A stretch of 17,149 bases of DNA from a virus (taxonomy: Duplodnaviria > Heunggongvirae > Uroviricota > Caudoviricetes), in IMG/VR virus record IMGVR_UViG_2606217105_000018, positions 1 through 17,149 of that record, one strand, 5' to 3'. Below are positions 1 through 17,149 of this stretch, in pieces. The first letter of the stretch is position 1. Every line of letters starts with the position of its first letter. The position numbers were made by a program, and so were the translations under genes. The notes beneath the pieces were generated by a model, which did no database searches, was not told the origin of the DNA, and saw only the letters and a program-made list of their open reading frames with translations.

Positions 1-1194
1 ATGGCGCGCATCACACGCCCCCTCACTAACAACGAGATCCTTAAAGCTAAACCCCGAGAAAAAGATTTCACTCTGCATGATGGGGACGGCCTGTTCTTAC
101 TCGTGAAAACATCTGGTAAAAAGCTCTGGCGCTTCCGATACCAACGTCCGGTAAGTAATAGCCGAACTAATCTGAGTCTCGGCTCATACCCTGCCATTAC
201 ACTCGCAGCTGCTCGCCAGTTACGCGACCAACATTTGGCTACACTCGCGCTGGGGATGGATCCACAACAGCAGCAAGAGCAAGCATCAGAGCAACGTCAG
301 ATTGAGCTGGATAGCATTTTCTCAACTGTCGCCGCCAACTGGTTCAAAATGAAGAGCAAAAGCGTCACTGAGGACTATGCGAAAGATATTTGGCGTTCTC
401 TAGATAAAGACGTATTCCCAGCAATAGGCGCGATACCTGTTCAGGAGATTAAGGCCAGAACGATAGTTGAAGCATTGGAACCAATCAAAGCACGCGGCGC
501 ATTAGAGACTGTTCGTCGCTTGGTCCAGCGCATTAACGAAATAATGATTTATGCAGTCAACACCGGCCTGATTGATGCTAACCCTGCATCAGGTGTTGGA
601 ATGGCATTTGAGAAACCCAAAAAGCAGAACATGCCCACGCTACGACCAGAAGAATTACCTAAGCTGATGCGTTCTTTGGTCATGTCAAACCTATCCGTTC
701 CGACTCGTTGCCTTATTGAATGGCAGCTCCTGACCCTTGTGCGCCCTTCTGAGGCTTCCGGCACTCGATGGGAAGAGATCGATCTCGATGCCAAACTCTG
801 GATGATTCCCGCCGAACGAATGAAGGCTAAGCGAGAACATATTGTCCCATTATCAGCACAAGCATTAGAATTACTTGATACAATGGAACCTATCAGTAAA
901 CATAGGGAGTATGTTTTCCCAAGCAGAAATGATCCTAAAAAAAATATGAATAGTCAGACGGCTAATGCGGCACTTAAACGCATAGGCTATGGTGGGAAAC
1001 TGGTCGCTCACGGATTACGTTCTATAGCAAGTACGGCCATGAACGAACATGGTTGGAATGCTGATATCATTGAATCAGCTCTTGCGCATATTGATAAAAA
1101 TGAAGTTCGTAGAGCATACAACAGGTCAACCTACTTGAGTCAACGGAGAGAGTTGATGAGTTGGTGGGCGGAAATAGTTAAACCAAGTAAGTAG
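1..1194 (+). CDS. intA: P4/CP4-57-type tyrosine integrase (IntA-like)
   Basis: 397-aa ORF. N-terminal block MAR.T.PLT..EI.KAKP...D..L.DGDGL.LL.K.SG.K.W.FRY and C-terminal block HGLRSIAST..NE.G...D.IE.ALAH.D.NEVRRAYNRS.YL.QRR..M.WWA match my recollection of conserved P4-family integrase sequence. The ORF begins at base 1, so any upstream att/tRNA lies outside the window. Confidence 0.9.
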   Translation: MARITRPLTNNEILKAKPREKDFTLHDGDGLFLLVKTSGKKLWRFRYQRPVSNSRTNLSLGSYPAITLAAARQLRDQHLATLALGMDPQQQQEQASEQRQIELDSIFSTVAANWFKMKSKSVTEDYAKDIWRSLDKDVFPAIGAIPVQEIKARTIVEALEPIKARGALETVRRLVQRINEIMIYAVNTGLIDANPASGVGMAFEKPKKQNMPTLRPEELPKLMRSLVMSNLSVPTRCLIEWQLLTLVRPSEASGTRWEEIDLDAKLWMIPAERMKAKREHIVPLSAQALELLDTMEPISKHREYVFPSRNDPKKNMNSQTANAALKRIGYGGKLVAHGLRSIASTAMNEHGWNADIIESALAHIDKNEVRRAYNRSTYLSQRRELMSWWAEIVKPSK

Positions 1195-1202
1195 ATAAAA
1201 TT

Positions 1203-2399
1203 ATGAGCGACTTCGATAGAATTGAGGAATTAGCAGGAGAAGGGGTCTACTCAGGCGTAGAACTCGAAGACGAGATGTCTCAGGATGACAACTCCGACAA
1301 GGAGCCATTCGATACAGATTCAATTTCAATTACTCCTAAGACAGTAGCATTGGATACTGTCTTACGCCGTATAAAAAATAATACAATAAAACTAGCTCCA
1401 GATTTTCAGCGTAGTTATGTTTGGGATAAAAAAAGGAAAAGTCAGTTAATTGAATCAATGATGCTGAAGATTCCATTACCGATGTTTTATGTTTCTGAAG
1501 ATAAAAATGGTGTATGGGAAGTTGTTGATGGATTGCAGCGCCTTACTACTATTAAAGATTTCATTTTAGGACCAGACTATGATGGTAAAGGATTTAAATT
1601 ATCTGGATTAGAGTTCTGGAGCACTCCATATGATGGCTATGATTATTTTAATTTAGAGAAGAATGATGAAAATATAAAAATAATCAATAATATTATGGAG
1701 ACTGAACTATCATTCATCATTATAAACCCTGAAACACCAGAAAAAGTTAAGAGAAATATTTTCAAGAGAATCAACACAGGTGGAATGCGGCTATCAAATC
1801 AAGAGATTAGACATGCGTTATATCAAGGGCGCGCCAGCATACTATTGAAATCCATGGTTGAAAATGATGTTTATAATGATGTTGTAGGTAGAACAGTCAA
1901 AGATGACAGAATGGCTGGTAGAGAGCTTATACTAAGGTATTTAGCTTTTACATTATTCGGCTACAATAATTATTATGGAGATATGGATGATTTTTTATCA
2001 AACACAATGAAAGCTTTAAATAATGAGAAAATTAAAGAACTTCCTTTAATTGATATACCTGAGGATGACGTTATCATTAACACATTCGAATTAGGTTTGC
2101 ACCGAACATATGAGATTTTTGGAGAACATTCTTTTCGAAAATCGTTACCTGGAGATACCAGAAAAACACCCGTTAACAAATCTCTTTTCGAACTATGGTT
2201 GTACTTATTAACAAGAGCTAAAAAAGACTCATATGACGAAATCATCTTGAAAAAAGATATTTTACTGAATGAATATAAAGACCTTCTTCAAAATTATGAG
2301 TTTATGAATTCAATAAGCCGACATGGTGCTGGAGTACAAGGCGCTAAATTTCGTAAAGATTGTCTTTTGGACTTACTAAAGAGAGTAATCAATGCTTGA
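1203..2399 (+). CDS. DUF262 (ParB/Srx-like) domain protein, cargo gene A
   Basis: 398-aa ORF. N-terminal half carries the DUF262 signature as I recall it (FQRSYVW ... IPLPMFYV ... VVDGLQRLTTI ... INTGGMRLSNQEIRHAL). No HNH/DUF1524-like His-Me motif is evident in the C-terminal half. Starts 8 bp after the int stop and overlaps the next gene by 8 bp. Region is strongly AT-rich compared with int. Confidence 0.7.
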   Translation: MSDFDRIEELAGEGVYSGVELEDEMSQDDNSDKEPFDTDSISITPKTVALDTVLRRIKNNTIKLAPDFQRSYVWDKKRKSQLIESMMLKIPLPMFYVSEDKNGVWEVVDGLQRLTTIKDFILGPDYDGKGFKLSGLEFWSTPYDGYDYFNLEKNDENIKIINNIMETELSFIIINPETPEKVKRNIFKRINTGGMRLSNQEIRHALYQGRASILLKSMVENDVYNDVVGRTVKDDRMAGRELILRYLAFTLFGYNNYYGDMDDFLSNTMKALNNEKIKELPLIDIPEDDVIINTFELGLHRTYEIFGEHSFRKSLPGDTRKTPVNKSLFELWLYLLTRAKKDSYDEIILKKDILLNEYKDLLQNYEFMNSISRHGAGVQGAKFRKDCLLDLLKRVINA

Positions 2400-3459
2400 T
2401 GAACTTGTTTTAAAATCATTTAAATCCTTTATCTATTCAAAGTTAGAACTTTCTAACATAACTGTACTCACTGGGCTAAATAGCAGTGGTAAAAGTTCAG
2501 TTCTACAAGCAATAAGAATGTGCAAATTAGTAGATAAAGACCACTCACCATATATTCAAGGATTTGGTGGGTTTACCGATCTCAAATCAAAATTGACCTC
2601 TCAACAAAAGCCTGTGCAGATTCTTCTTTCTAGTAAAGAAATGAAAAATTATCTATATCTATCACTAAGAGAAAATATAAACAAACACAGAACAAGAATA
2701 GATAGGTTTTCGGTAGAATATATCTCAGCTGATAGACATGGTCCATGCGTAACATTACCTATTATGCCTCAGGATATTGATGATATTACTGTTGGTGAAA
2801 AAGGTGAGTACTTTGCAGATTATTACTCAAAATTTGAAAGTGTTATAATACCTGAAAAACTTCGCCATGCTAATTCAACAGGAAATACGTTAAAGCATCA
2901 AATTAATCACTGGATGGGAGAAATATCACCTGGTGTTGATTTGAATTTCTCCGTTACGAAAGAGCAAGATATTTCCCATCTAGGGGTTAATGGTTTCAGA
3001 GCAACTAATACAGGGTTTGGAATAAGTTATTCACTCCCGATCGTGTTAAGTGCATTAGTAATGTCTTCAGAGGCTCCGCTAGATAGCTTCAAGCAGTCAA
3101 AAATGAAAGCATGGCATTCTAATAAAAATAAAATTTTAATAATAGAAAATCCTGAGGCGCATTTGCACCCAAAAGGCCAAACAGCTCTCGGATTATTGTT
3201 AGCTATAGCATCTTCTTGTGGTGTCCAGATAATTGTTGAAACACATAGTGACCATTTTATTGATGGCGTTCGATTAGCAGTCAAAAATGTAGGTGCTACA
3301 CTGGCTCAAAAAAGTATCATTTATTATTTTACGCGTGAGAAAGATAAGGATACAAAAATAGAGAAAATCAGAATAAAAGAAGATGGGAAGCTCACAAGCT
3401 GGCCAGAAGGTTTCTTTGACCAAAGCACAATTAATTTATCTAAATTAGCAAAAAAATAA
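2392..3459 (+). CDS. ABC/AAA_21-type ATPase (DUF3696-like C-terminus), cargo gene B
   Basis: 355-aa ORF. Walker A GLNSSGKSS near the N-terminus; Walker B-like ILIIENPEAHLHP followed by ETHSDHF (H-loop-like) near the C-terminus, typical of small SMC/ABC-like AAA_21 ATPases. The start overlaps the gene A stop (ATGCTTGA). Confidence 0.7.
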   Translation: MLDELVLKSFKSFIYSKLELSNITVLTGLNSSGKSSVLQAIRMCKLVDKDHSPYIQGFGGFTDLKSKLTSQQKPVQILLSSKEMKNYLYLSLRENINKHRTRIDRFSVEYISADRHGPCVTLPIMPQDIDDITVGEKGEYFADYYSKFESVIIPEKLRHANSTGNTLKHQINHWMGEISPGVDLNFSVTKEQDISHLGVNGFRATNTGFGISYSLPIVLSALVMSSEAPLDSFKQSKMKAWHSNKNKILIIENPEAHLHPKGQTALGLLLAIASSCGVQIIVETHSDHFIDGVRLAVKNVGATLAQKSIIYYFTREKDKDTKIEKIRIKEDGKLTSWPEGFFDQSTINLSKLAKK

Positions 3460-3461
3460 AA

Positions 3462-4370
3462 ATGAATATAATCAACTACTTAGATGAAAGATGGGTGGTG
3501 GAGTTATGTGCTAATATTCAAGATAACTCCAAAGAACTTGAGTGTTTCTTAGAATTAGCCGAAGCTGTTAAGAAAAACTGCGGGCGTTCAAGCCTCTCTC
3601 TCACCTCAAATATATGGATAATTAAATGCGGTCACGATAATTTATGTGACATCTTATATGGCCCTTTAACTCAAGATCCTGATTTAAGGGATTACCTTTT
3701 AAGACTGGCAAGAATCATTGATGAAGCTGATAGTTATGAAATAGGCAAACCTGAAACTCACGCATATAACTCAGAAGCTCATGCGGCTTTACACCATAAT
3801 AAGGCAGGAGGCCTTTTATATAAAGAAAATGAAGAATTACCTTGGTGGGATGATAGTTCCATGATATTAATTGACTGCCAAGACAAAATACTTTCTTTAT
3901 TCCGAAAACTTCCTATTTACCACAATATGGGTCTAGACGAATTTGATAGTTATCTAGAGAAATGCTTTCCTAATATATATTTTCTCGATGATGCGAGAGA
4001 TTTTTCTAAAACAGATATTAGCGAAAAAAACGACACAAAACTTTCGGTTATTATAAAGCATTTATCATATCTTAATGATCATGCACAATATGACTACCTT
4101 ATAGATCCAGAACAGTTTGAGCAAAAAGCACTTTCTCATGGTGTAGAACTATCTAGAGAAAGCAGCAGTACAAAACGAAACCAAGATGCAGTTAAAGAAA
4201 GAACAAAAAAAATAAATGAGGAGGCTCTTTTCTTTGAATTACACACCAAACTCAGTAGAGAAAAAGGTAGAATCCATTTTCATATAGGCTCAAGCCTGAG
4301 CGAAAAAATAAATAAATTAAGTGAAGGTCGTCTAATAGTTGGCATTGTGTGCAAACACTTATCAACTTAA
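3462..4370 (+). CDS. hypothetical protein, cargo gene C (no recognisable motif)
   Basis: 302-aa ORF starting 2 bp after the gene B stop; same strand and same low-GC composition as genes A and B. I could not recognise any catalytic motif by eye. Confidence 0.55.
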   Translation: MNIINYLDERWVVELCANIQDNSKELECFLELAEAVKKNCGRSSLSLTSNIWIIKCGHDNLCDILYGPLTQDPDLRDYLLRLARIIDEADSYEIGKPETHAYNSEAHAALHHNKAGGLLYKENEELPWWDDSSMILIDCQDKILSLFRKLPIYHNMGLDEFDSYLEKCFPNIYFLDDARDFSKTDISEKNDTKLSVIIKHLSYLNDHAQYDYLIDPEQFEQKALSHGVELSRESSSTKRNQDAVKERTKKINEEALFFELHTKLSREKGRIHFHIGSSLSEKINKLSEGRLIVGIVCKHLST

Positions 4371-4810
4371 TTAGTACCTCAATATTAAGCTGCCACTTTA
4401 ATCACTCATGATAAGTGGCACCTATTCATTTCAATAAAATTCCCCCTAATAAAAATCAGCACTTTTTTTTCAAATAAATAAATCAGTAACAATATTCACA
4501 TGTATAGCGGCAGAATAATTTTTTCTTAAATATCACACAATCTACATCGTGGGCCGATTTTAATGTAAGAGTACGTGTAAGGATCTAATTTGCAAAGATA
4601 GATTATTGCACGTACACATATAATTCGTTCTAAAATCTATGAGTTGCGATCATGACGCCAATAAGTATGCCTTCACGATGCGAGCCCCCCTCGTCCTGTA
4701 AGTATCCCACATCCCCCTACCTACCAATAACTTGTTGTCACTATTTATAGCTCTCTTGTTTGAATCTCAACAACAACAGTAAAAAATATGCACATTACTG
4801 CTGGCGCGCA

Positions 4811-4829
4811 ATGCTCTCCCCGCCACGCC
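4811..4829 (-). other. cos: cos-like site (P2/P4-type 19-nt cohesive end, about 16/19 match)
   Basis: Reverse complement of ATGCTCTCCCCGCCACGCC is GGCGTGGCGGGGAGAGCAT, compared with the P2/P4 cohesive end GGCGAGGCGGGGAAAGCAC as I remember it. It lies between the int-proximal cargo and psu, where cos sits in a P4 prophage. Confidence 0.4.
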
Positions 4830-4930
4830 TGCCCGCTTAAGAGGTCGCTTTTAATGCAGGTGCATGAACCAACTCAAGCCGCGCCGGTACTGGTGTTGCG
4901 TGGGATAAAAAATACGGGGATTTGCATGCA

Positions 4931-4963
4931 AAACCATGCACCTTATGGATGCATGGTTTTTTT
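4931..4963. terminator. stem-loop with T-tract, probable bidirectional terminator downstream of psu
   Basis: AAACCATGCA (4931-4940) pairs with TGCATGGTTT (4950-4959) around a 9-nt loop, followed by a run of 7 T on the plus strand. On the minus strand the same stem is followed by TTTTG about 40 nt after the psu stop. Confidence 0.45.
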
Positions 4964-5002
4964 CGGGAAAAATAGCGGAATTTTCGGGGATTTTTTTGCG
5001 TG

Positions 5003-5569
5003 CTACCGTGCGGCCAGTTCTGCACGTCGGCGGGGGTAAATCAGGTTCTGTGCCGGGGTGAATTTCTCGCGATTATCATCCCGCGAAGCCGCATCAGGCC
5101 TGAATCCGATGGCCGTTAAAATATCGTTGTCCTGCACGGAATAATTAATTTTTTTACCTGCGGCCAGCCACACCGACAGGGCTTCACGCAGATAATCAAC
5201 CGAGTGCTGCATGGCGCTCTGTTTTACTGCGGGAAGCTGTTCGTTATACCCCATCAGCTCAGGTGCCAGCGTGGCGGCCAGCTCCGCGCCGTGCTGCTGC
5301 ATAAATTCATGGAGCCGGTTGCGGATACTGATGTGCTGCACTTCCTCATGTGAGCGGATATAGCGACCGGCGGCCTGATTAATCTCCCATTTTTTCACGT
5401 CGATATCGTCGCGCAAATCCTGCATTCTGCTCGGGATTTGTTCGTCACCGGCAAGGAGCTGTTCACGGTATTCCCGTTCAAGGTCTGCCAGTTCGGCTTT
5501 ACGTTTCAGCCAGGTATTTTTGTTCGTCTGACAGGCCTCAAAGGCCTGCTGTATGGTCACAGTGGTCAC
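5003..5569 (-). CDS. psu: Psu, polarity suppression protein (P4-type, capsid decoration / Rho antagonist)
   Basis: 188-aa ORF with a GTG start preceded by AGGAG. Blocks QQAF..CQ.NK..W, VNQAAGRYIRSHE.VQHISIR.RL..FMQQHG..LAA.LAPELMGY, INYS.QD.DILT.IGFRPD.AS.DD.REKFTPAQN match my recollection of P4 Psu. Sits directly after delta on the same strand. Confidence 0.85.
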   Translation of the reverse strand: MTTVTIQQAFEACQTNKNTWLKRKAELADLEREYREQLLAGDEQIPSRMQDLRDDIDVKKWEINQAAGRYIRSHEEVQHISIRNRLHEFMQQHGAELAATLAPELMGYNEQLPAVKQSAMQHSVDYLREALSVWLAAGKKINYSVQDNDILTAIGFRPDAASRDDNREKFTPAQNLIYPRRRAELAAR

Positions 5570-5584
5570 GAGTCTCTCTCCTGA

Positions 5585-5824
5585 TTAATGCCGGAACGGC
5601 GAACTGTAGCAGCCCTGCACCTTACGCGGCGGTGGTGGCGCCACCGGCGCGGGGTCGGTTTTCTCCGGGGCGGCACGTATCACACCGTCAACCGACTCGA
5701 TGGTGCGGAAAGTGGCCGAACATTCGATATTGGTACACTGGTGATAACGCTGTTTGACGTTTTCCGACAGATAACGGCTGGTACGGACGTGCGCGGTCTT
5801 TTTGCAGAACGGACAGTGAAACAT
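5585..5824 (-). CDS. delta: Delta/Ogr-family zinc-finger late-gene activator
   Basis: 79-aa ORF MFHCPFC..TAHVRTSRY......RYHQC.N..CSATF with the C-x2-C ... C-x4-C Ogr/Delta zinc-finger pattern. Lies between sid and psu as in P4. Confidence 0.85.
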   Translation of the reverse strand: MFHCPFCKKTAHVRTSRYLSENVKQRYHQCTNIECSATFRTIESVDGVIRAAPEKTDPAPVAPPPPRKVQGCYSSPFRH

Positions 5825-5827
5825 GAT

Positions 5828-6573
5828 TCAGCCCTCTGCCTGTTCGTGGTCTTTTGCGGCCAGTTCAGCGGCAAGCTTCATCCGTCTGGCCGGGCTTCTT
5901 AACAGCGCCATATCAACCCCGGTTATGACCGGGCGATTCATGCCCGTTACGGACAGAACCGGCTCCTGCTCCATATCGAAATGATACAGGGCTGACTGCA
6001 GATTCAGGGCATCGCCCAGCTCGCGGGTCACGGTCGCACGCGGCGAGGTTTCTCCGCTCATTTCCAGCGACCGTATACGCAACAGAAAGGCACGTAACAG
6101 TGCGGGGCTGATACCGGCCAGCACTTTCTTCCATTCGCTGTTGGCGTAAGTGGTGAATGCTTTTTCGTGGGCGCTGATATAAGCCGTACCGGAGGAGCAT
6201 GCGCCAAGCATGGCGAGGCCTTTGTCTTTCTCCAGCTCGGTAATCAGACCGGTGAACTCATCAGCCAGTTCTCGGCTGGCGATACGTTTACTGTGTTCAG
6301 CTTTCAGTTCAGGAGTGAGGTTGCCGCGCAGAGTTCGAAAGCGGCTGCGCCAGTCCTGTTCGGCCTGTGCACTTTCACTGAGCGCGGTCTGTCGTTCCTG
6401 CTCACAACGCTGAATGGAAGCCTCAATGTCGCTGAGTTTACCCATGCTGGCCGTGTGTGCGTCTTTTGCTTCGTTAAGTGCGGCCAGCGCACCGGCAATA
6501 AGTTGTTCCGCGCCTTCATCCTGTTTACTGATAACGGTCTGCATGGCTTTGATAATGAGTTCGGGTTTCATGT
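5828..6573 (-). CDS. sid: Sid-like external scaffold (capsid size determination) protein
   Basis: Ala/Glu-rich, probably coiled-coil, protein immediately upstream of delta-psu on the same strand. I prefer the ATG at 6573 (MKPELI..., GGAG about 8 nt upstream) over the longer ORF starting at 6637, because a TGT-N12-ACA dyad at 6644-6661 would otherwise fall inside the coding region. Confidence 0.65.
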
Positions 6574-6643
6574 TCAGGCTCTCCGTGTGTTCAACCTGAA
6601 ATGATTCTGACGCCTCCTGCACAACAACACGATTCATTGCCGT

Positions 6644-6661
6644 TGTCAGAGTGCTGGCACA
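6644..6661 (-). promoter_or_regulatory. TGT-N12-ACA dyad, candidate Delta/Ogr activator site of a Psid-like late promoter
   Basis: TGTcagagtgctggcACA centred about 80 bp upstream of the proposed sid start. P2/P4 late promoters carry a TGT-N12-ACA element near -55. Such a 6-nt-defined dyad also occurs by chance, so position is the main argument. Confidence 0.3.
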
Positions 6662-6740
6662 AACAGACCTTAAAATCAGGCTGGCCAGAGAAAGGTCGCA
6701 GGAAAACCTTACTCACCGTTTGTTTTTTTACTTATAACTA

Positions 6741-6842
6741 TTCACCACTGTTCACCTTAAATAAAAAGATAAGTAATACAGTAAGTTAAATGGTTAACAG
6801 TTGAAGGTCTGACTGTTCACCGTCTGTTCACCACTGTTCACC
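6741..6842. repeat. cluster of TGTTCACC iterons (P4 ori-like alpha-binding sites)
   Basis: TGTTCACC at 6749-6756, 6814-6821, 6825-6832 and 6835-6842, plus a partial copy at 6741-6748, in the sid/vis divergent intergenic region. This octamer is the P4 type I iteron bound by alpha protein. Confidence 0.6.
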
Positions 6843-6924
6843 CTCCTGTTTTGCTCTGGTTATAGCATTTAGACTTTATTTTGATTAAAAATGAAAAATA
6901 TATAACTAAAAGCAATAGAAATTG

Positions 6925-6984
6925 CTGCATTGTAATGCAGTGATTTGCATATGTTTGCCAGCGTTTGCCATTGTTTGCCAGAGC
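6925..6984. promoter_or_regulatory. palindrome TGCATTGTAATGCA followed by three direct GTTTGCCA repeats upstream of the vis-like gene
   Basis: The sequence TGCATTGTAATGCAgtgatttgcatatGTTTGCCAgcGTTTGCCAttGTTTGCCAgag can be read directly. It lies about 130-180 bp upstream of the 7109 start, so it is a candidate operator for the early/late switch. Confidence 0.3.
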
Positions 6985-7108
6985 GAAAAGTCAATGTTTG
7001 TTTCCCCGAAAATCTCACATGACCTGAGGAAAAATATAGACATAATAAGGAGCTACCCGAAGCCGGACGGACACGACCGGCACTGTATGGACTTTGTGAG
7101 GTAGCCCG

Positions 7109-7375
7109 ATGCACACTGCTTTTTCTTCCCCGTCTTCTGCCCCTGCCGCGCCGCTGATGCCGGTTTCTGATACCGTTCACGAGCGCTTTATCCGTCTGCC
7201 CGAAGTGATGCATCTGTGCGGCCTGTCCCGCTCGACCATTTACGACCTCATCAGCCGGGAAGCCTTCCCGAAACAAATCTCCCTCGGCGGAAAAAATGTG
7301 GCGTGGGCGCAGTCTGAAATCACTGCATGGATGGCGGATCGCATTGCCGAACGTAACCGGGGCTATGACGCATGA
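7109..7375 (+). CDS. alpA: AlpA/Vis-family excisionase-like transcriptional regulator
   Basis: 88-aa ORF. Core [55 protein letters not shown] is a typical AlpA-family helix-turn-helix. GAGG lies about 9 nt before the ATG at 7109; an alternative start at 7157 is possible. Confidence 0.8.
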
Positions 7376-7728
7376 TGATGACCATTCAGCAAACAGCCCC
7401 TTTTTCTGGCTTGCTTCTTTTCGCCGTTTCCAGGTATAGTTTTCCCGCTGTCGCAAAATCGGCAGCCGGGCGTAGGAACCCGAGTTACTCAATGGCGACA
7501 CCGGACGCGCCATGCGTCTTTTTTTACGTCGTTGCTCAGGCACACCCATTTTTCGGGCTGTGGTGTTTACACCTTAGCCCCTGTCAGATAATGGTGATCC
7601 GGGCGGGGCAGCCTTCGGGCTGGCCGGTATTCATTGAGGCCGGTATTCCTACCCCCGTTCGGGTCACCACCCATGAGCGTAGGAACTCCGGTGGTGGCAA
7701 TAACCGCTACTCAATGGAGGTTGCCACT
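7376..7728 (+). ncRNA. candidate P4-type immunity RNA / leader region with repeated complementary boxes
   Basis: GCGTAGGAAC occurs at 7471-7480 and 7676-7685; TACTCAATGG at 7486-7495 and 7709-7718; the complementary GTTCCTAC-like box (ggtattcctaccc) at about 7640-7652. This resembles the seqA/seqB/seqC arrangement of the P4 cI RNA system. Exact RNA ends are not determinable by eye. Confidence 0.25.
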
Positions 7729-7923
7729 ATGGCTACGACCCTCACCCCGTCACACCCGCAATTTGTCTTTGTGTTTGCTGCTGTTCGTCGCGCAGACCGT
7801 ACCCCTCGTATTTGTATGCTCCGCACCGTTGCCGGTGATGAGCACGCCGCACGCCTTTCTCTCGTTCGCGATTACGTTCTCTCGTTTGCTGGCCGTCTGC
7901 CGGTTGCGGAGGTTCGCGCATGA
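7729..7923 (+). CDS. small hypothetical protein of the satellite early operon
   Basis: ATG at 7729 with GGAGG 8 nt upstream; 64 codons ([16 protein letters not shown]...). Its stop overlaps the next start (ATGA). This is the only protein-like part of the long 7372..7923 ORF. Confidence 0.3.
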
Positions 7924-8147
7924 GACACACCACCATTACCGCCCGTGACCTCGAATGTCTGGAGCATATGCGCAATGTCGGCCAGCTCGTCAATGAGCTG
8001 ATGCAGGTGCAGGACTGCGCCACCGTTCGTCGTGACCCGGCGCAGCAGTTACAGCTCACCTCCGTGATTTACCTCATGACCGCCCAGCTCGACGGCGTGG
8101 TCGAACGCTGCAATCAGCAGTGGCTGACCGGGGAGGGTAACGCATGA
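7920..8147 (+). CDS. hypothetical protein, satellite early operon
   Basis: 75-aa ORF with ATGA overlaps at both ends (translational coupling), same strand, directly upstream of the alpha operon genes. Occupies the slot where P4 epsilon would lie, but I cannot confirm identity. Confidence 0.5.
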
Positions 8148-8464
8148 AACAGCCATTACCGCCCGTATTACGCGCCGCGCTGTATCGTCGCGCCGTGGCC
8201 TGTGCATGGCTGACCCTGTGCGAACGCCAGCACCGCTACCCGCACCTCACCCTCGACGCGCTGGAAAGCGCCATTGCCGCCGAGCTGGAGGGCTTTTACC
8301 TGCGCCAGCACGGCGAGGAAAAAGGTCGCCAGATTGCCTGTGCACTGCTGGAAGATTTAATGGAAGCCGGACCACTCAAAGCCGCGCCGTCGCTGTCCTT
8401 TTTCGGGCTGGCCGTGATGGATGAGCTTTGCGCCCGTCATATCACCGCACCGGCACTGCACTGA
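8144..8464 (+). CDS. hypothetical protein, satellite early operon
   Basis: 106-aa ORF, start overlapping the previous stop (ATGA), ending 15 bp before the alpha start. Confidence 0.5.
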
Positions 8465-8478
8465 GGGAGAAAATAACT

Positions 8479-10812
8479 ATGAAAATGAACGTAACGGAAA
8501 CCGTAAAACAGGCGTGCGGTCACTGGCCGCGCATTCTCCCTGCGCTGGGTGTGAAGGTGATTAAAAACCGCCATCAGGCCTGTCCGGTGTGTGGCGGCTC
8601 TGACCGTTTCCGCTTTGACGATAAAGAAGGGCGCGGGACGTGGTTCTGCAATCAGTGTGGCGCAGGTGACGGGCTTAAGCTGGTAGAGAAAGTGTTTGGC
8701 GTGACCCCGTCAGAAGCTGCCGGGAAGGTGAACGCCGTGACCGGCAATCTGTCGCCGGTTGCCCCGGAAGTGATTGCGGCCGCAGAGGCTGAAACCGATG
8801 CCGATCGCAAAGCGGCGGCCGAGCTGGCCGCGAAACTGATGGAGAAAACCCGACCGGCCACCGGCAACGCCTACCTCACCCGCAAGGGCTTCCCCGCTCT
8901 GGAATGTCTGACGCTCACCGTCATGCATAAAACCGGCGGCGTGACGTTCCGCGCCGGGGATGTGGTTGTCCCGCTGTATGACGATACCGTCGCACTGGTT
9001 AACCTTCAGCTTATCAATGCTGACGGTCTCAAACGCACCCTGAAAGGCGGTCAGGTCAAAGGGGCATGTCATATCATCGAAGGGAAAAAACAGGCCGGAA
9101 AACGCCTGTGGATTGCAGAGGGTTATGCGACCGCACTCACCGTGCATCACCTGACCGGGGAAACCGTCATGGTGGCGCTGTCCTCCGTGAACCTCCTTTC
9201 TCTGGCGAGCCTTGCCCGTCAGAAATATCCGGCCTGTCAGATTGTGCTCGCTGCCGACCGTGACCTTAACGGCGACGGCCAGAGTAAAGCCGCTGCGGCC
9301 GCAGATGCCTGTGAGGGCATTGTTGCCCTGCCGCCGGTGTTCGGTGACTGGAATGATGCGTTTATACAGTACGGCGAGGAGGCCACGCGCAAGACTATTT
9401 ATGACGCCATCCGGCCACCGGCGCAAAGCCCATTCGACACCATGAGCGAGGCGGAATTTACCGCCATGAGCGCCAGCGACAAGGCTTTGCGGGTGCATGA
9501 GCATTACGGTGAAGCGCTGGCGGTGGATGCGAACGGCCAGCTCCTGTCCCGCTATGAAAACGGCATCTGGAAAAATATCCCTGCCGCCACTTTTTCACGG
9601 AATGTGGCTGATTTATTCCAGCGCTTACGCGCCCCGTTCTCGTCCGGGAAAATTGCCTCGGTGGTGGAGACCCTGAAACTGATTATTCCGCAGCAGGATA
9701 CACCGGCGCGCCGTCTGATTGGCTTTCGCAACGGGGTACTCGATACTCAAAGCGGCGTATTCAGCCCGCACCACAAATCGCACTGGCTGCGCACATTGTG
9801 CGATGTGGATTTCACCCCGCCGGTGGAGGGGGAAACGCTGGAGACGCACGCGCCGAACTTCTGGCGCTGGCTCGACCGTGCAGCCGGTAAAAATCCACAA
9901 AAACGCGACGTGATTCTGGCTGCGCTGTTTATGGTGCTGGCGAACCGTTACGACTGGCAGCTCTTTCTCGAAGTGACCGGTCCCGGCGGGAGTGGCAAAA
10001 GTATTCTGGCTGAAATCGCGACCCTGCTCGCCGGAGAGGATAACGCCACGTCAGCCGATATCGACACACTGGAAGACCCGCGCAAGCGTGCCTCCCTGAT
10101 TGGCTTCTCGCTTATCCGTCTGCCTGACCAGGAAAAATGGAGCGGTGACGGCGCAGGACTCAAGGCCATCACCGGCGGCGATGCAGTTTCAGTTGACCCG
10201 AAATACCAGAATCCGTACTCAACGCATATTCCGGCGGTGATTCTGGCCGTGAACAATAACCCCATGCGCTTCACCGACCGCAGCGGCGGTGTGTCACGCC
10301 GCCGGGTGATTATTCACTTCCCGGAACAGATTGCCCCGGAGGAACGCGACCCGCAGCTCAGGGATAAAATTGCGCGCGAGCTGGCCGTCATTGTGCGCCA
10401 GCTTATGCAGAAATTCAGCGACCCGATGACCGCACGCGCACTGCTTCAGTCGCAGCAGAACTCCGACGAGGCGCTCAGCATTAAGCGCGATGCTGACCCG
10501 ACATTTGATTTTTGCGGCTATCTGGAAATGCTCCCGCAGACCAACGGGATGTTTATGGGGAATGCCAGCATCATCCCGCGGAATTATCGTAAATATCTCT
10601 ATCACGCGTATCTGGCCTATATGGAGGCCAACGGCTACAGAAACGTGCTCAGCCTGAAAATGTTCGGGCTGGGGCTGCCCATGATGCTGAAAGAGTACGG
10701 CCTGAATTATGAGAAGCGGCACACCAAGCAGGGGATACAGACCAATCTGTCGCTGAAAGAGGAAAGCTACGGCGACTGGCTGCCGAAGTGCGACGAACCC
10801 GCAGCAACATAA
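8479..10812 (+). CDS. alpha: Alpha-type primase-helicase (zinc-binding primase, TOPRIM, D5-like helicase)
   Basis: N-terminal CPVCGG...FCNQCG zinc-binding motif, a primase region, and Walker A GPGGSGKS in the C-terminal helicase part. ATG at 8479 has a strong GAGGGAGA Shine-Dalgarno and gives 777 aa, the size I recall for P4 alpha. The ORF-track start at 8428 lacks a ribosome-binding site and overlaps the preceding gene. Confidence 0.9.
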   Translation: MKMNVTETVKQACGHWPRILPALGVKVIKNRHQACPVCGGSDRFRFDDKEGRGTWFCNQCGAGDGLKLVEKVFGVTPSEAAGKVNAVTGNLSPVAPEVIAAAEAETDADRKAAAELAAKLMEKTRPATGNAYLTRKGFPALECLTLTVMHKTGGVTFRAGDVVVPLYDDTVALVNLQLINADGLKRTLKGGQVKGACHIIEGKKQAGKRLWIAEGYATALTVHHLTGETVMVALSSVNLLSLASLARQKYPACQIVLAADRDLNGDGQSKAAAAADACEGIVALPPVFGDWNDAFIQYGEEATRKTIYDAIRPPAQSPFDTMSEAEFTAMSASDKALRVHEHYGEALAVDANGQLLSRYENGIWKNIPAATFSRNVADLFQRLRAPFSSGKIASVVETLKLIIPQQDTPARRLIGFRNGVLDTQSGVFSPHHKSHWLRTLCDVDFTPPVEGETLETHAPNFWRWLDRAAGKNPQKRDVILAALFMVLANRYDWQLFLEVTGPGGSGKSILAEIATLLAGEDNATSADIDTLEDPRKRASLIGFSLIRLPDQEKWSGDGAGLKAITGGDAVSVDPKYQNPYSTHIPAVILAVNNNPMRFTDRSGGVSRRRVIIHFPEQIAPEERDPQLRDKIARELAVIVRQLMQKFSDPMTARALLQSQQNSDEALSIKRDADPTFDFCGYLEMLPQTNGMFMGNASIIPRNYRKYLYHAYLAYMEANGYRNVLSLKMFGLGLPMMLKEYGLNYEKRHTKQGIQTNLSLKEESYGDWLPKCDEPAAT

Positions 10813-10860
10813 CCTCACTCAGACCGGCAACAGCCGGTCTTTTCCTTTCTGGCCATTGCC

Positions 10861-11152
10861 ACAGGGTGAACAATCCACTGTTCACCCTTCACCGTATATT
10901 CACCCTGTATCACCATGAAATTATTGATAAAAAACCAGAGGTGAACAGTGTGAACAGTAAAACCTGAAAAAACTTTTTATCACCCCTCACATCGCCTGAG
11001 CGGACGGTTCCAGAACGAGCACAAATCACAAAGGTGAAGAGTCGACTGTTCACTCTTCACCAACCGTTCACCACTTATCATTCTGATATTAAAAAGAAAA
11101 ATAACGAGGTGAACAGTGTGAACAGTTAAATGCAAAAAAACTTTTTTTCAAT
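10861..11152. repeat. crr-like region: two direct repeats of about 110 bp, each carrying TGTTCACC/GGTGAACA iterons
   Basis: Repeat 1 is about 10873-10985 and repeat 2 about 11041-11152. Each has ctgttcac.cttcacc..., then gaggtgaacagtgtgaacagt, then an A6-8CTTTTT element. This matches the published description of the P4 cis replication region downstream of alpha. Confidence 0.6.
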
Positions 11153-11458
11153 GCTCATTGTTTAAGAAAAAAAGACCACATGAAAAAGGTGGCACATTTC
11201 TAAAGAGGGATCGTATTACTATGACATTTCATAATTGGTACACGTTTAGGTACACAACTGAAAGTTGAATACGGAAAAATCCTTTACATTTAATATATTA
11301 AGAAATTTATTCAGACTCCGCCAGCCCACCAATCATGATTGGACGGTGTAAGGACAACACCAACAAAAACAGGAAGTTAGCAGTCTCAGCAGGACACCGA
11401 CCAGACGGTGAGGAGACAAAAAAGGATACGCAAAGGAGCCGCGGCTCTCGAGTGACAC

Positions 11459-11490
11459 AAAAGCCCGCTTATGCGGGCTTTTTGTTTTTC
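11459..11490 (+). terminator. rho-independent terminator
   Basis: AAAGCCCGC-TTAT-GCGGGCTTT perfect hairpin followed by TTGTTTTTC, about 70 bp upstream of the endonuclease gene. Confidence 0.5.
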
Positions 11491-11559
11491 CCTTAAGTTC
11501 CTAGCCGCTTATCTATAACTATGGAAAAATGTTAACCCTGACTGTATGTTAACAAAGGG

Positions 11560-12774
11560 ATGTATATGTCGGTTTTTCATAACTGGCTGCTTGATATCGC
11601 AAGCGGGAATTACTTTATCTACATCAAACGCCTTTCTGCAAACGACACAGGCGCAACAGGTGGCCATCAGGTCGGACTTTATATCCCCTCAAATATCGTT
11701 GAAAAGCTTTTTCCATCTATCAATCATACTCGCGAACTGAACCCTTCAGTCTTCCTTACTGCGCATGTATCATCCCATGATTGCCCTGATACCCAAGCAC
11801 GCGCAATTTATTACAACAACCGTTATTTTGGTAAGACCCGAAACGAAAAAAGAATTACGCGCTGGGGGAGAGGAAGTCCATTACAGAACCCTGAAAATAC
11901 AGGAGCCCTCACAATTCTTGCTTTCAGGTTAAACGAACAGAACACTGACTGTTCCGAGGTAGATATATGGGTCTGCGTCAATCCCGATGAAGAGGATATC
12001 ATCGAGTCTGCTATTGGCGAAATCATACCTGGAACCCTAATTTCCGGCCCTGCCGGACAAATTTTGGGCGGATTGTCTCTTCAGCAAACTCCAGTAAATC
12101 ATAAATATGTTATTCCTGAAGACTGGAAGAAGCGTTTTCCTTCTGGAAACGAAATTATTCAATATGCTGCTGGCCATTATGCTAAAAACTCCAAGGATCC
12201 AGATGAGCAACTGATTGACCGTCGGCGTGTCGAGTATGATATTTTTCTACTCGTCGAGGAATTACATGTTCTTGATATTATTAAGAAAGGATTCGATTCT
12301 GTAGATGAGTTTATTGCATTAGCCAACTCTGTCAGTAATCGACGTAAATCAAGGGCAGGCAAATCACTTGAACTTCACCTAGAGAAGCTTTTTATCGAGC
12401 ACGGACTACGGCATTTCTCCACTCAGGCAGTTACTGAAGGTAATAAAAAACCAGATTTCCTGTTTCCTTCAGCAGAGGCATATCATAACGTTGAATTTCC
12501 TGTAGAAAACTTACGTATGCTGGCAGTAAAGACCACCTGCAAAGATCGCTGGCGTCAGATACTGAATGAAGCAGATAAAATCCATCAGGTACATTTATTT
12601 ACACTGCAAGAAGGTGTTTCTTCAGCACAATACCGAGAAATGAAAGATGCGGGTGTCAGACTCGTTGTACCATCAACTTTACATAAAAAATACCCAGAAG
12701 CAGTTAGAGAAGAATTAATAACGCTCGGAGCATTCATTACTGAGCTGATAGAGCTTTACGCTGAACTATCATAG
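11560..12774 (+). CDS. ecoRIIR: Type IIE restriction endonuclease, EcoRII family (CCWGG)
   Basis: ORF of 404 aa from 11560, or 402 aa from the ATG at 11566 which has better AAGGGA spacing. The sequence matches my recollection of R.EcoRII; size and convergent pairing with a Dcm/M.EcoRII-like methyltransferase support the call. Confidence 0.8.
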   Translation: MYMSVFHNWLLDIASGNYFIYIKRLSANDTGATGGHQVGLYIPSNIVEKLFPSINHTRELNPSVFLTAHVSSHDCPDTQARAIYYNNRYFGKTRNEKRITRWGRGSPLQNPENTGALTILAFRLNEQNTDCSEVDIWVCVNPDEEDIIESAIGEIIPGTLISGPAGQILGGLSLQQTPVNHKYVIPEDWKKRFPSGNEIIQYAAGHYAKNSKDPDEQLIDRRRVEYDIFLLVEELHVLDIIKKGFDSVDEFIALANSVSNRRKSRAGKSLELHLEKLFIEHGLRHFSTQAVTEGNKKPDFLFPSAEAYHNVEFPVENLRMLAVKTTCKDRWRQILNEADKIHQVHLFTLQEGVSSAQYREMKDAGVRLVVPSTLHKKYPEAVREELITLGAFITELIELYAELS

Positions 12775-12779
12775 GCTGA

Positions 12780-12802
12780 CTCCCGGCTTAAAAGGCCGGG
12801 AG
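12780..12802. terminator. inverted repeat between the convergent R and M genes (weak bidirectional terminator candidate)
   Basis: CTCCCGGC-ttaaaag-GCCGGGAG lies between the R stop (12774) and the M stop (12809). No clear T-tract on either side. Confidence 0.3.
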
Positions 12803-12808
12803 ATGTTC

Positions 12809-14242
12809 TCAAGGCTGCCCAGTCTTACCAGCATCAGCAGAAACAGCTTTGAGGATATAGGGTTCCAGAAGTCTGGCAACAGCTTCAAATACTGGCACCA
12901 CAACTGAGTTACCGAACTGCCGATATGACTGAGTATCTGAAACCGGAATACGGAATGGTTTCCCTCCAGGTTTTTCAAATCCCATAAGGCGTGCGCACTC
13001 TCGGGGAGTCAGCCTGCGTGGTCGACGAGCCTGATTACTCTCATTCATAAAGTCAGCCTCTCCCGTTGCCATATCCCAACCACGATCAATAAGAATTTCT
13101 GATCCGTCTTTGTGATATCTGGCAGAAAGTGTGCGTGCAATGCTTTCCTTATTCTCAGGATTGACCAACCCAAAGCCAAAACCATTCCCCTTGGCTGCAT
13201 GCTTTTTGGCGTAGTTATAAAGGTACTCCCATAGTTTTGGCGTAAGTATATATTTACTGTCGACTACAGGCTCCAGCAATTCACCAAATGATGGGCGGTG
13301 TTCCGGATAAAAACGACTGATATCACGCAAGGTAAACCCCTTGTGAATATTCAGATCTCGTCTAAATCCGACCAGAACAATACGTTCACGATGCTGAGGC
13401 AAAAAATGCTTCCCATCGATAATCTTTGGATCGTTTTTTCCCATTTCTGCAGCATCGGCAACTTCGTAGCCCAGCTCGTCAAGGGTCTCCATAATGACTT
13501 TGAAAGTTTTACCCTTATCATGGCTCTTCAGATTTTTGACATTTTCCAGCACAAAAATTGCCGGTTTTTTTGCTCGTATAATACGTGCCACGTCAAAAAA
13601 AAGTGTTCCTTGTGCTTCACATTCAAAACCATGCGCACGACCAAGTGAGTTTTTCTTACTAACACCAGCAAGGCTAAATGGCTGGCACGGGAACCCCGCA
13701 AGAAGCACATCATGATCCGGCACATGCTCATCAATATATGCATAAGCATCCGTTTCCAATACATCGGTTTTATCACTCAGCGTGACTTCCCGAATATCGA
13801 GATTGAATTTATGCACCTGTTCATCGTTAAACCAGTTGGCCTTGTATGTACGCACAGCATCTTTATTCCATTCACTGGTAAAAACACACTGGCCTCCAAT
13901 GGCCTCAAAACCTTTCCGTATCCCTCCAATTCCAGCAAATAAGTCAATGAAGCGGAAAGCATATTCCGGATGGTTTGCAGGTGGTTCTGGTAGCATCTTA
14001 CGCAGAAGAGACTCTTCTACTGAAGTCAACGATTTTGGTAAACACTTGCCATTAATCCAGCGGTTAATGGTTTCACGGCTCCACTCATTTTTTCCGACTT
14101 TTCTCAGTAATTCAGCCACATACTTCTGATCATAGATTTCCAGCACTTTCTCGATAAGCTTTTTATCATTTTCCTGTCGCAGCTTTTCTTCCGCCTCGGC
14201 TTCCTTCAGCAGATGCTGTGCCAACACTTCAAATTCAGACAT
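12809..14242 (-). CDS. ecoRIIM: C5-cytosine DNA methyltransferase, Dcm/M.EcoRII family (CCWGG)
   Basis: Motif [18 protein letters not shown], the catalytic [11 protein letters not shown] (PC motif) and ENVKNL (motif VI). Starting at the internal ATG 14242 (MSEFEVL..., GGAGG 7 nt upstream) gives 477 aa, the size I recall for M.EcoRII. The ORF-track start at 14284 has no ribosome-binding site. Confidence 0.9.
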
Positions 14243-14603
14243 AATTCCTCCAAGGGGTCTAATGGGTGAAACTTTATCACTCATTCAACCCAGAAGGAAA
14301 TGTTTTATCTGGATATTTAAACAGTGACTACAACGTAATCTAGCACTGGTGATGCTTTGTTAGGCATAGAGAATCATTCTATATACGACTAATGACAGAA
14401 AAACAGCAGACAAGTAGTTTGTTCATAAATTAACGCATACTATGTGTCTACGGTTTTCGAGACCGGTCCAATCATCAAACGAAACATAAAATTAGCTCAC
14501 ATTATGAGGAAAAGTATCTTTTTTGTACTATGTAAATTCAAAGGCTTAGCCTCATTTCTCCGATGGTTTTCTCAACACTACTGGTTGTGAGCCCTTGCAA
14601 TGA

Positions 14604-15422
<819 letters not shown>

Positions 15423-15441
15423 GTCTTTAAGTGATAAGCAT

Positions 15442-15490
15442 AAACCGCAGCACGTCATGCATACGTCGTGTCTGCGGTTTTTCTTTTTTG
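15442..15490 (+). terminator. rho-independent terminator after the GIY-YIG gene
   Basis: AAACCGCAG ... CTGCGGTTT stem enclosing a smaller palindromic loop, followed by TTTTTCTTTTTTG. Confidence 0.5.
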
Positions 15491-15491
15491 C

Positions 15492-16076
15492 TTACACGGT
15501 GTCTGGTTCTTCTGGCCACTCAATATCCGGTGCAGTTGATGTATCAACACGGTTCAGCAACACCCGATACTTTTTCCAGGCTTCCAGCAATGAGGTTTCT
15601 TCCTCCGTTGCGATTTCCAGATCTACAGCATCCTGAAGTGGCGCAATATGCTCACTGGCTACCTGCATCAGGCTGTTTTTTGTTTCTTCTGCCTCCCGGA
15701 TCCGGAACAGTTTTTCTGCTTCCGTATCCTTCACCCAGGCTGTGCCGTTCCACTTCTGATATTCCCCTCCCGGCGACAACCAGGTAACATTTTCCGGTAA
15801 CGGACCGAGTTCAGAAATAAATAACGCGTCGCCGGAAGCCACGTCATAAACCGTTTTACCCCGATGGTCTTCAACGAGATGCCACGATGCCTCATCACTG
15901 TTGAAAACAGCCACGAAGCCTGCCGGAATATCTGGTGGTGCAATATCGGTACTGTTTGCTGGCAGACCTGTATGAGGCGGAATATATGCGTCACCTTCAC
16001 CAATAAATTCATTAGTTCCGGCCAGCAGATTATAAATTTTTATGGTCCGTGCTTGTTCACTCATTCTGAATGCCAT
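15492..16076 (-). CDS. tfa: tail fibre assembly protein (Tfa family chaperone)
   Basis: 194-aa [50 protein letters not shown]..., a typical lambdoid Tfa N-terminus. Its ATG overlaps the upstream tail-fibre stop (TAATG). Confidence 0.85.
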
Positions 16077-17149
16077 TATGCAAGCCTCACAATATAGTTA
16101 AATGCGATGTTTTTGACGGTGTTTTCCGCGTTACCAGCAGCGTTAACGGTGATGGTGTGTCCATGTGAACCAATCGCAACGGAGTGCGTATGAGCACCAA
16201 TACCGACAGTATGCGCGTGTGCACCTGCAGATGCTGCTGTGCCGGACAGTGAATGGCTATGATTACCATCTGTACTGGTATTCGCTAACCACCCCGTAGA
16301 CATACCTACTGAGCCTTGTACACCCCAGGTATTTTGACCTGAGCTTGTATAACCATATTGATAAGTATCTTTAAAAACACTGGGGTTAAATCGACGGCCA
16401 TCTCTATGGCTGTGATTACCAGCTGCATTCGTGCTGCCACTTAAACTATGGGTATGCGCACCAGTGTTATTCGTGGATTTAGTGCCGTAATCAAACGACG
16501 ATGTGGTTTTCGTCCCCAAATCCGTACTGGATGCGCTGGCGCTGTGGGTGTGCGATTTAATACCGTCCTGTTCCTGAGACAAGCAGACCTCGCTGCTGCG
16601 CTGGCCTGTTCAGTGGCTTCGCCAGCCTTCGTTGTGGCTGTTGAAGCAGACGATGCGGCACTTTCTGCCGATTTTCCGGCGGCGGTGGCACTGGCTGAGG
16701 CCTGCCCGGCACTTGTTGACGCGGCACTGGCAGACGACGCAGCCGCTGTTTTTGAGCCTGCCGCAGCCGAGGCGCTCTGTCCCGCTGCCGTTTCAGAAGA
16801 CCTGGCGTTTGTCTCAGACGTCTTTGCCGCCTTCGCGGAATTGCCTGCCGCCGTTGCCGAGGAAGCGGCACTACTGGCGCTTGATGATGCGTTCGTTTCT
16901 GATGATTTCGCTGCCTCTTTTGAGGCCGCCGCATCCCGGGCTGAGGTGGCTGCTTCTGACGCCTTCGTGGTCGCGGCGGATGCAGAAGTGGCTGCTGATT
17001 GTTGTGACGCTGCCGCATTCGTTTCTGACGTTTTCGCCGCAGCGGCACTGGTAGCTGCCGCGCTTTTTGAGGACTCTGCAGCGGCAGCACTTTTTGATGC
17101 TTCAGTGGCCTTTGTTGATGCCGTTCCTGCGCTGGAAGACGCTGACTGA
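16076..17149 (-). pseudogene. stf: side tail fibre protein, partial at window edge and apparently frameshifted
   Basis: The C-terminal 168 codons (16076-16582) carry H-x-H repeats ([28 protein letters not shown]) and end in [15 protein letters not shown]. The region 16583-17149 is open in a different minus-strand frame that encodes a Ser/Ala/Thr-rich repeat with recurring KTSETNA units, typical of a tail-fibre N-terminal shaft. The two frames overlap only between about 16460 and 16611. Confidence 0.5.

Follow-up and report, generated by a model that had tools for sequence, protein, structure and literature searches.

The 17,149-nucleotide stretch of viral DNA analysed here (the window; Duplodnaviria, Heunggongvirae, Uroviricota, Caudoviricetes) corresponds to positions 1 to 17,149 of IMG/VR record IMGVR_UViG_2606217105_000018, and carries at 1203-4370 three genes that almost certainly constitute the Menshen anti-phage system nsnA-nsnB-nsnC. 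It is also very probable that the operon forms a complete Menshen system of Type I, and that it is exchangeable cargo of a P4-like satellite, which holds it in its int-cos/psu hotspot and occupies the ssrA (transfer-messenger RNA, tmRNA) site of Escherichia coli. The system type, the anatomy of its domains and the P4 hotspot have all been published previously; the observation is correct, and the system is a known one. The locus is thus no addition to the known defence systems, and would be labelled by standard tools of the PADLOC type.

Identification of the nsnABC operon

The three genes are co-directional on the plus strand and tightly packed. The stop codon of the integrase gene int (1192-1194) is followed after an 8-bp gap by the open reading frame (ORF) of nsnA (gene A; 1203-2399, 398 amino acids, aa), which overlaps nsnB (gene B; 2392-3459, 355 aa) by 8 bp, and a gap of 2 bp separates nsnB from nsnC (gene C; 3462-4370, 302 aa). 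These are the coordinates given by an initial annotation made from the sequence, and the motifs which that annotation quoted (FQRSYVW, DGLQRL, GLNSSGKSS, IIENPEAHLHP and ETHSDHF) are all present in the translations.

Each of the three proteins is matched by the corresponding PADLOC model, gene A by NsnA (PDLC03877; E 8.6e-123, profile positions 18-384 of 385), gene B by NsnB (PDLC03878; E 1.6e-99, residues 1-354 of the protein against positions 1-344 of 345), and gene C by NsnC (PDLC03908; E 2.5e-124, positions 1-298 of 298). The runner-up models are much weaker, with E-values of 5.8e-40 for PD-T4-2_A and of approximately 1e-24 to 1e-26 for PDC-M55A and AriA. Because three long ORFs are found in DNA of 34% GC, and because the family E-values range from 1e-99 to 1e-124, the nsnABC pattern is not the product of chance. 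The ratios of nonsynonymous to synonymous substitution (dN/dS) relative to a Salmonella copy of the operon are 0.04 for nsnA, 0.11 for nsnB and 0.24 for nsnC, and all three genes are therefore maintained.

The initial annotation had regarded the trio as a candidate for an undescribed defence operon, a new combination of a DUF262 protein, a small ABC ATPase and a third protein, that could be assigned to no named system. The searches of general family collections are in keeping with such a view, as Pfam recognises generic domains in two of the proteins, namely DUF262 (GmrSD_N) in gene A and AAA_15, AAA_21 and DUF3696 in gene B, and no family in gene C, and NCBIfam has no specific model for A or C. 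The annotation was thus right about gene A as a DUF262 protein and about gene B as an ABC-type ATPase. Its description of gene C as lacking a recognisable domain holds for Pfam and NCBIfam, but not for PADLOC, which identifies NsnC, nor for structure comparison. NCBIfam contains no Menshen models, which is why the public records carry the names 'DUF262 domain-containing', 'DUF3696 domain-containing' and 'hypothetical', and why the system could not be named from sequence alone. However, the curated Menshen models are matched from end to end and in the same gene order as an already characterised system, an outcome that the annotation itself had named as refuting its proposal. In addition, each protein has the architecture published for its Menshen counterpart, and the architecture of the cassette has already been catalogued in P4 hotspots. 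An undescribed three-gene system is for these reasons scarcely credible.

Millman 2022, in the summary given by PMC12065111, validated the Menshen operon of Solibacillus silvestris as a defence against phages T2, T4, T6 and Fado, and the system has been analysed across 1,997 loci (Li et al. 2025, PMC12065111). The DUF262 gene is required for defence (PMC10952713). A search of the literature found no biochemical study of Menshen. None of its components has a solved structure, and a sequence search of the Protein Data Bank returned no match for NsnA, and for NsnB just an OLD-family ATPase. At all of the points of sequence and structure that were compared, the nsnABC locus agrees with Menshen.

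Several points weigh against the assignment of a functional Menshen system to the window. The window allele is known from its sequence and predicted structures alone, and the sole validated operon, in the account of the original work that PMC12065111 summarises, is that of a Firmicute, S. silvestris, to which the comparison was made through PADLOC profiles and published descriptions. Expression of the operon is assumed; a scan of 800-5000 for promoters and terminators gave results at or under the shuffled expectation and is thus no guide to transcription. A megablast search with the operon against 5,426 complete RefSeq E. coli genomes found it absent, making it a rare cargo of draft assemblies, and the genomic context was consequently taken from draft contigs. 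Lastly, published AlphaFold 3 (AF3) predictions gave no complex that includes NsnA (PMC12065111).

Domain anatomy of the Menshen proteins

NsnA carries the ParB-type DUF262 motifs QRxxxW, DGxQR and FxxxN, in the form of QRSYVW69, DGLQR109 and FKRIN187 (motifs I-III), which are invariant in 26 homologues; the quoted FQRSYVW and DGLQRL correspond to Q69-W74 and D109-R113. The AlphaFold 2 (AF2) model, with a predicted local distance difference test (pLDDT) score of 80, consists of a disordered segment at residues 1-34 (pLDDT <50, no secondary structure), an alpha/beta DUF262 core at about 43-206, and an all-helical C-terminal domain at 210-396. This helical domain is covered by the PADLOC NsnA profile and is the 'ParBDB' domain to which the literature ascribes DNA binding (PMC12065111). 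As there is no additional sensor domain N-terminal to DUF262, NsnA is of Type I in the nomenclature of Li et al. Full-length homologues with 55-60% identity number in the thousands, and nsnA is the candidate for the sensor of the system.

The structure of NsnA is nearest to those of BrxU and SspE, yet it is about 170 aa shorter and lacks their nuclease. In GmrSD, BrxU and SspE, enzymes of Type IV restriction and of phosphorothioate sensing, a single polypeptide of 560-580 aa includes a DUF1524 HNH-type nuclease, whereas NsnA, at 398 aa, has no such domain and is paired with a separate ATPase and a separate, predicted RNase-type effector. No DUF1524 was found in NsnA by Pfam, and the AF2 model ends at residue 398 within the helical domain. 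Type IV restriction of the GmrSD/SspE type was accordingly rejected as an identity for the operon, there being no DUF1524, and the HEC-05/06, SspE and Orf5 models matching just 50-70 or so residues of DUF262.

NsnB is an ABC-type (OLD-ABC/AAA_15) ATPase with a DUF3696 C-terminal tail. The Walker A motif is GLNSSGKS28 (G28-S35, quoted by the initial annotation as GLNSSGKSS), in the Walker B motif, ILIIEN248, EN replaces DE, and GFG208 is found instead of the SGG signature; the segment IIENPEAHLHP starts at I250, and H285 is present within ETHSDHF. Published NsnB proteins share these peculiarities, namely EN in Walker B, GxG as signature and a DUF3696 tail, and AF3 predicts that an NsnB tetramer binds the PIN-like domain of NsnC by means of its DUF3696 tails (PMC12065111). 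The proposed role of nsnB is that of a transducer.

ABC- or OLD-type ATPases that control a nuclease effector are shared by Menshen with PARIS (AriA/AriB), Septu (PtuA/PtuB) and Gabija (GajA), and NsnB is matched by the PADLOC models for AriA, GajA and Old with E-values of 1e-24 to 1e-12. The operon in the window differs from these systems in lacking a DUF4435/Toprim or HNH partner, in having a PIN-like plus BECR effector, and in encoding an extra DUF262 sensor protein. PARIS itself was rejected, since no DUF4435/Toprim is found in A, B or C, and the AriA model scores 2e-24 against 1.6e-99 for NsnB. In the candidate system PDC-M55, the ATPase M55A resembles NsnB, the DUF3696 region included (E 3e-26), and is accompanied by a DUF262 protein (M55C); PDC-M55 may be a relative of Menshen.

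The structure of gene C was predicted and compared with known folds, as the initial annotation had suggested, and came out as a pair of a PIN-like and a RelE/YafQ-type domain. The prediction, made from an alignment of nine sequences (pLDDT 86, predicted template modelling score 0.83), has an N-terminal inactive PIN-like domain at about 1-190, followed at about 194-302 by a C-terminal BECR domain of RNase type that resembles RelE, YafQ and YoeB. An identical pair of folds is published for NsnC of S. silvestris, and 35 inactive PIN (inPIN) and nine BECR families are described for Menshen as a whole (PMC12065111).

Conservation was assessed in 35 full-length homologues of NsnC with 24-55% identity. 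D77 is the sole invariant residue of the PIN-like half, which therefore has no acidic catalytic tetrad. In the C-terminal half, R247, E259, H261, K263, G269, R270, F273 and H299 are invariant, and S231, E233, T237 and H272 nearly so. This pattern, taken with the predicted fold, fits an inactive PIN domain joined to an active BECR-type RNase with a site of the His-Arg-His type, and nsnC is the effector candidate of the operon. An exhaustive search for NsnC relatives returned 265 cluster representatives, many of which share just the C-terminal 150 or so residues; 'DUF262, partial' members in the NsnC cluster trace to P0039, a fragment of NsnA, and represent a quirk of the listing rather than biology. 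A tblastn search with NsnC matched no phage record, and gave a distant partial match on two Burkholderia plasmids.

The effector of a genuine Menshen locus could be something other than an RNase, with NsnC acting as a ParE-like poison of gyrase or DNA, or with the system restricting DNA in the manner of GmrSD, BrxU and SspE. The latter is difficult to reconcile with the lack of DUF1524/HNH or any other DNA nuclease domain in A, B and C, as judged by Pfam and by structure comparison of NsnA. With regard to the former, ParE proteins are not known to possess catalytic sites of the YafQ/YoeB type. In NsnC, the invariant H261, R270 and H299, together with E259, K263 and H272, resemble the H-R-H site of PB-BECR1 and the catalytic sites of YafQ and YoeB (PMC12065111), which makes an effector that is not an RNase unlikely. 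A stand-alone Type II toxin-antitoxin system of the RelE/ParE type was rejected on other grounds, because the RelE-like fold makes up the C-terminal third of a 302-aa protein and because there is no conserved small ORF in the spacer downstream of the operon.

The Type I Menshen of S. silvestris StLB046 and the window operon are alike in their nsnA-nsnB-nsnC gene order and in all three proteins, comprising an NsnA with DUF262, a helical C-terminal domain and no DUF1524, an NsnB ABC ATPase with EN Walker B, GxG signature and DUF3696 tail, and an NsnC with an inactive PIN-like domain and a YafQ-like BECR domain with a site of the His/Arg/His type. They differ in that the host of the window operon is E. 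coli and not a Firmicute, and in that its vehicle is a P4 satellite. A cassette of matching content is also on record from the same kind of vehicle, as Table S1 of Rousset et al. 2022 lists 'DUF262 + hypothetical + AAA_15/AAA_21/DUF3696' in the psu-int hotspot of E. coli P4 elements, described by Pfam content only and neither named nor assayed there (WP_032259914/-916/-915, with sequence identity to the window proteins not confirmed; PMC9122126).

Another P4 hotspot cargo, 'Syst.12_NsnC_Menshen' (bioRxiv 10.64898/2026.02.27.708500), has been cloned and is reported with a DefenseFinder match to NsnC, and its C-terminal tail loosely resembles that of the window protein (RIHFW...IIIGYCGEHL versus RIHFH...IVGIVCKHL). 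It was rejected as an instance of this cassette, however, as it consists of two ORFs without NsnA or NsnB, and its similarity to window NsnC by BLASTP is not significant (best E-value 0.06).

A model for Menshen function

The best supported account of how Menshen works, put forward by Li et al. 2025 (PMC12065111), is consistent with all of the features found in the window allele, and is applied to it here by inference. NsnA, in which a DUF262 NTPase of the ParB type is joined to a helical domain for DNA binding, would sense invading and possibly modified phage DNA, and would in turn stimulate the ABC ATPase of NsnB, for which a tetramer like that of GajA is predicted. NsnB would hold NsnC by the PIN-like domain, between the DUF3696 tails, until binding or hydrolysis of ATP releases or activates the effector. 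The RelE/YafQ-like domain of NsnC, with a candidate active site formed by E259/H261/K263, R270/H272 and H299, would then cut RNA and stop phage production, whether directly or by abortive infection. The odds that this chain from DNA sensor to ATPase to RNase is correct in its entirety are about even. For the mechanistic work that Menshen still needs, this allele would be a convenient choice, being a Type I system native to E. coli and carried by a well-understood satellite.

The P4-like satellite and exchange of its cargo

The initial annotation placed the operon in a cargo slot between int and cos of a P4-type satellite, and the P4 core genes, the cos site and the immunity RNA were all found, in addition to which the content of the slot is variable. 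The left border of the cargo is formed by int (1-1194, plus strand), which encodes a P4-type tyrosine integrase of the family using the ssrA/tmRNA site (Pfam Arm-DNA-bind_3, Phage_int_M and Phage_integrase). Downstream of nsnC lies an AT-rich non-coding spacer (4371-4801; 35% GC), with no ORF longer than 32 aa, that forms part of the swapped insert described below. The spacer is 98% identical in Salmonella copies, and a distant-mode blastn search with it against complete E. coli genomes returned nothing. The right border is the conserved P4 cos region (4802-5002, minus strand), with a cos-like core, GGCGTGGCGGGGAGAGCAT, at 4811-4829 on the minus strand, 16 of whose 19 bases are those of the P2/P4 cos sequence GGCGAGGCGGGGAAAGCAC.

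The most direct evidence for exchange of cargo comes from a sister satellite in strain HKUOPY1, located at the same site and 96% identical in its backbone, which carries an AAA ATPase and a DUF4435 protein, the architecture of PARIS, between int and cos. The PARIS proteins of the sister satellite, WP_061353169 and WP_061353170, are likewise found in Table S1 of Rousset et al. (PMC9122126). The two integrase genes are 88% identical in DNA and 93% in protein sequence, with likeness lost after about position 1143, in the last 50 bp or so of int; the two satellites are then unrelated up to 4801 and nearly identical from 4802, adjoining cos. Because likeness fades at the end of int and resumes at 4802, 1195-4801 represents a swapped cargo insert. 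The pair illustrates cargo swapping cleanly, the breakpoint falling precisely at cos, in what is a known P4 defence hotspot, psu-int (Rousset et al. 2022, PMC9122126).

Composition is in agreement with the swap, the GC content being 34.0% in the operon, 35.0% in the spacer, 46.9% in int and 55.9% in the satellite core (4802-10812). The earlier suggestion of horizontally acquired cargo, far more AT-rich than the core, is thus supported both by composition and by the swapped insert on a near-identical backbone.

The hallmarks of a P4 satellite (int, psu, delta, sid, alpha, cos and the CI (C4) RNA) are all present. On the minus strand, cos is followed by psu (5003-5569; PHROG 6366 Psu, E 6.6e-91, with Pfam Psu in identical loci), a delta-like regulator (5585-5824; phrog_603, Ogr/Delta, with Pfam Ogr_Delta in identical loci) and the sid/capsid-size gene (5828-6637; phrog_6165). 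The plus strand encodes two RNAs of the P4 immunity region that score above the Rfam gathering threshold, isrK (7447-7524; RF01394, 70.9 bits) and the C4/CI antisense RNA of P4 immunity (7587-7674; RF01695, 81.3 bits), and the P4 alpha primase-helicase (8428-10812; PHROG 2249, E 5.6e-235), for which the start in relatives, when scaled, lies at about 8479, and which in identical loci shows the domains Zn_Ribbon_Prim, Toprim_3, D5_N and Pox_D5. Three further long ORFs, at 6869-7549 (minus), 10294-10818 (minus) and 4788-5039 (plus), have no family match and overlap P4 genes, RNAs or cos in antisense; they are probably not real genes but a by-product of the high GC content of the core.

Beyond alpha, at 10858-11127, are TGTTCACC / GGTGAACAGTGTGAACAGT repeats of the P4 ori/crr type, and an attR-like copy of the 3' end of ssrA, CCGCCAGCCCACCAATCATGAT, is found at 11319-11345. 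Likeness to other satellite-bearing contigs stops at 11483. The core is up to 96% identical to P4-like elements of E. coli, and the right flank is 99.9% identical to E. coli chromosomes. Contigs with identical genes have the element immediately downstream of smpB-ssrA, and in full-length relatives int comes just after ssrA; the tmRNA site is hotspot #9 of the E. coli map of defence islands (PMC10121019).

Distribution and divergence of the cassette

Proteins identical to A, B and C are encoded in E. coli draft assemblies, on more than 160 contigs, and every E. coli context that was inspected is the same ssrA satellite. Variants of at least 90% identity are found in Salmonella, Klebsiella, Citrobacter, Cronobacter, Enterobacter and Raoultella. 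The Salmonella loci match the window at 98% identity from int up to and including cos, after which an insertion sequence (IS) truncates them, and they are for this reason best regarded as decayed satellites. Because these loci lack P4 core genes, int and the cassette were also considered as a separate mobile module, an idea rejected for Salmonella on the same two features. In two of these loci (L008 and L009), an IS with an rve transposase cuts the satellite just past cos, from position 8250, leaving a remnant of int, Menshen and cos. In two (L008 and L010), positions 1-3200 hold the end of a P2/186-like prophage, with CI repressor, CP76, Fil and integrase genes, directly upstream of the satellite int. 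In one Salmonella copy (L009), the synonymous divergence (dS) of int is 0.15, as against 0.02-0.05 for the adjacent nsnA, nsnB and nsnC, which suggests a recombination breakpoint inside or beside int.

More distant relatives retain the A-B-C gene order. A Serratia marcescens island at ssrA (L011, 3535-7900) contains int (73% identical in aa sequence) and nsnABC, collinear with the window at 68% DNA identity, with no P4 core genes after them, while a metagenomic locus has A-B-C without an adjacent integrase. Judging by the Serratia island, int and the cassette may at times travel, or be retained, as a unit without a satellite.

The domains of the three proteins have diverged to very different extents from the window copy. 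DUF262 is 83% identical in Serratia and 72% in the metagenomic locus, NsnB 64% and 47%, the C-terminal half of NsnC 64% and 51%, the C-terminal domain of NsnA 57% and 43%, and the N-terminal half of NsnC just 37% and 26%. Such uneven divergence, as far as these sequence comparisons go, fits the 'domain polymorphism' published for Menshen (PMC12065111).

The linkage of the cassette to int raises the question of whether it mainly serves the satellite, as an addiction or stabilisation module or as a weapon in conflicts between P4 and helper or between satellites, with anti-phage defence as a secondary effect. The cassette does contain a toxin-fold domain, it stays tightly linked to int even in the decayed Salmonella satellites in which int, cassette and cos are what is left, and in the Serratia island it accompanies int without P4 core genes. 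However, no small antitoxin gene is found near the operon, the toxin domain is fused within a 302-aa protein that is predicted to be regulated by an ATPase, and the slot is a general defence hotspot. The Menshen family, moreover, is present in 27 phyla and mostly outside satellites (PMC12065111). A role chiefly in service of the satellite is thus most improbable, and anti-phage defence by Menshen is the preferred reading.

A more specialised form of defence can also be envisaged, in which Menshen on the satellite is tuned for inter-viral conflict. In this view NsnA would respond to some feature in the DNA of competing phages and spare the P2-type helper, and the PIN-like half of NsnC, which evolves very rapidly (26-37% identity, as against 72-83% for DUF262), would be the surface on which phage inhibitors or triggers act. 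This is a speculative proposal and is doubtful at best, but if true, the E. coli copy would be the first tractable model for the Menshen mechanism, including the signalling from a ParB-type sensor to an ABC ATPase.

Neighbouring DNA

A second defence system lies to the right of the satellite, at 11560-14284 of the window, where an EcoRII-type restriction endonuclease with EcoRII-N and EcoRII-C domains (11560-12774, plus strand) and a C5 cytosine methyltransferase (12809-14284, minus strand) form a restriction-modification pair of the EcoRII type. The pair is followed by a gene for a LEM-3-like GIY-YIG protein (14649-15422), and, from there to 17149, the minus strand encodes tail-fibre assembly and tail-fibre proteins. 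The region 14649-17149 forms the terminal part of a lambdoid prophage, which is arranged in tandem with the satellite at ssrA. The block of restriction-modification and prophage genes is also found in strain NADC1036 (L002), where it abuts ssrA with no satellite in between. A full-length Rfam match to IS009 (229 bits) is located at 15535-15733 on the minus strand, within the tail-fibre assembly gene.

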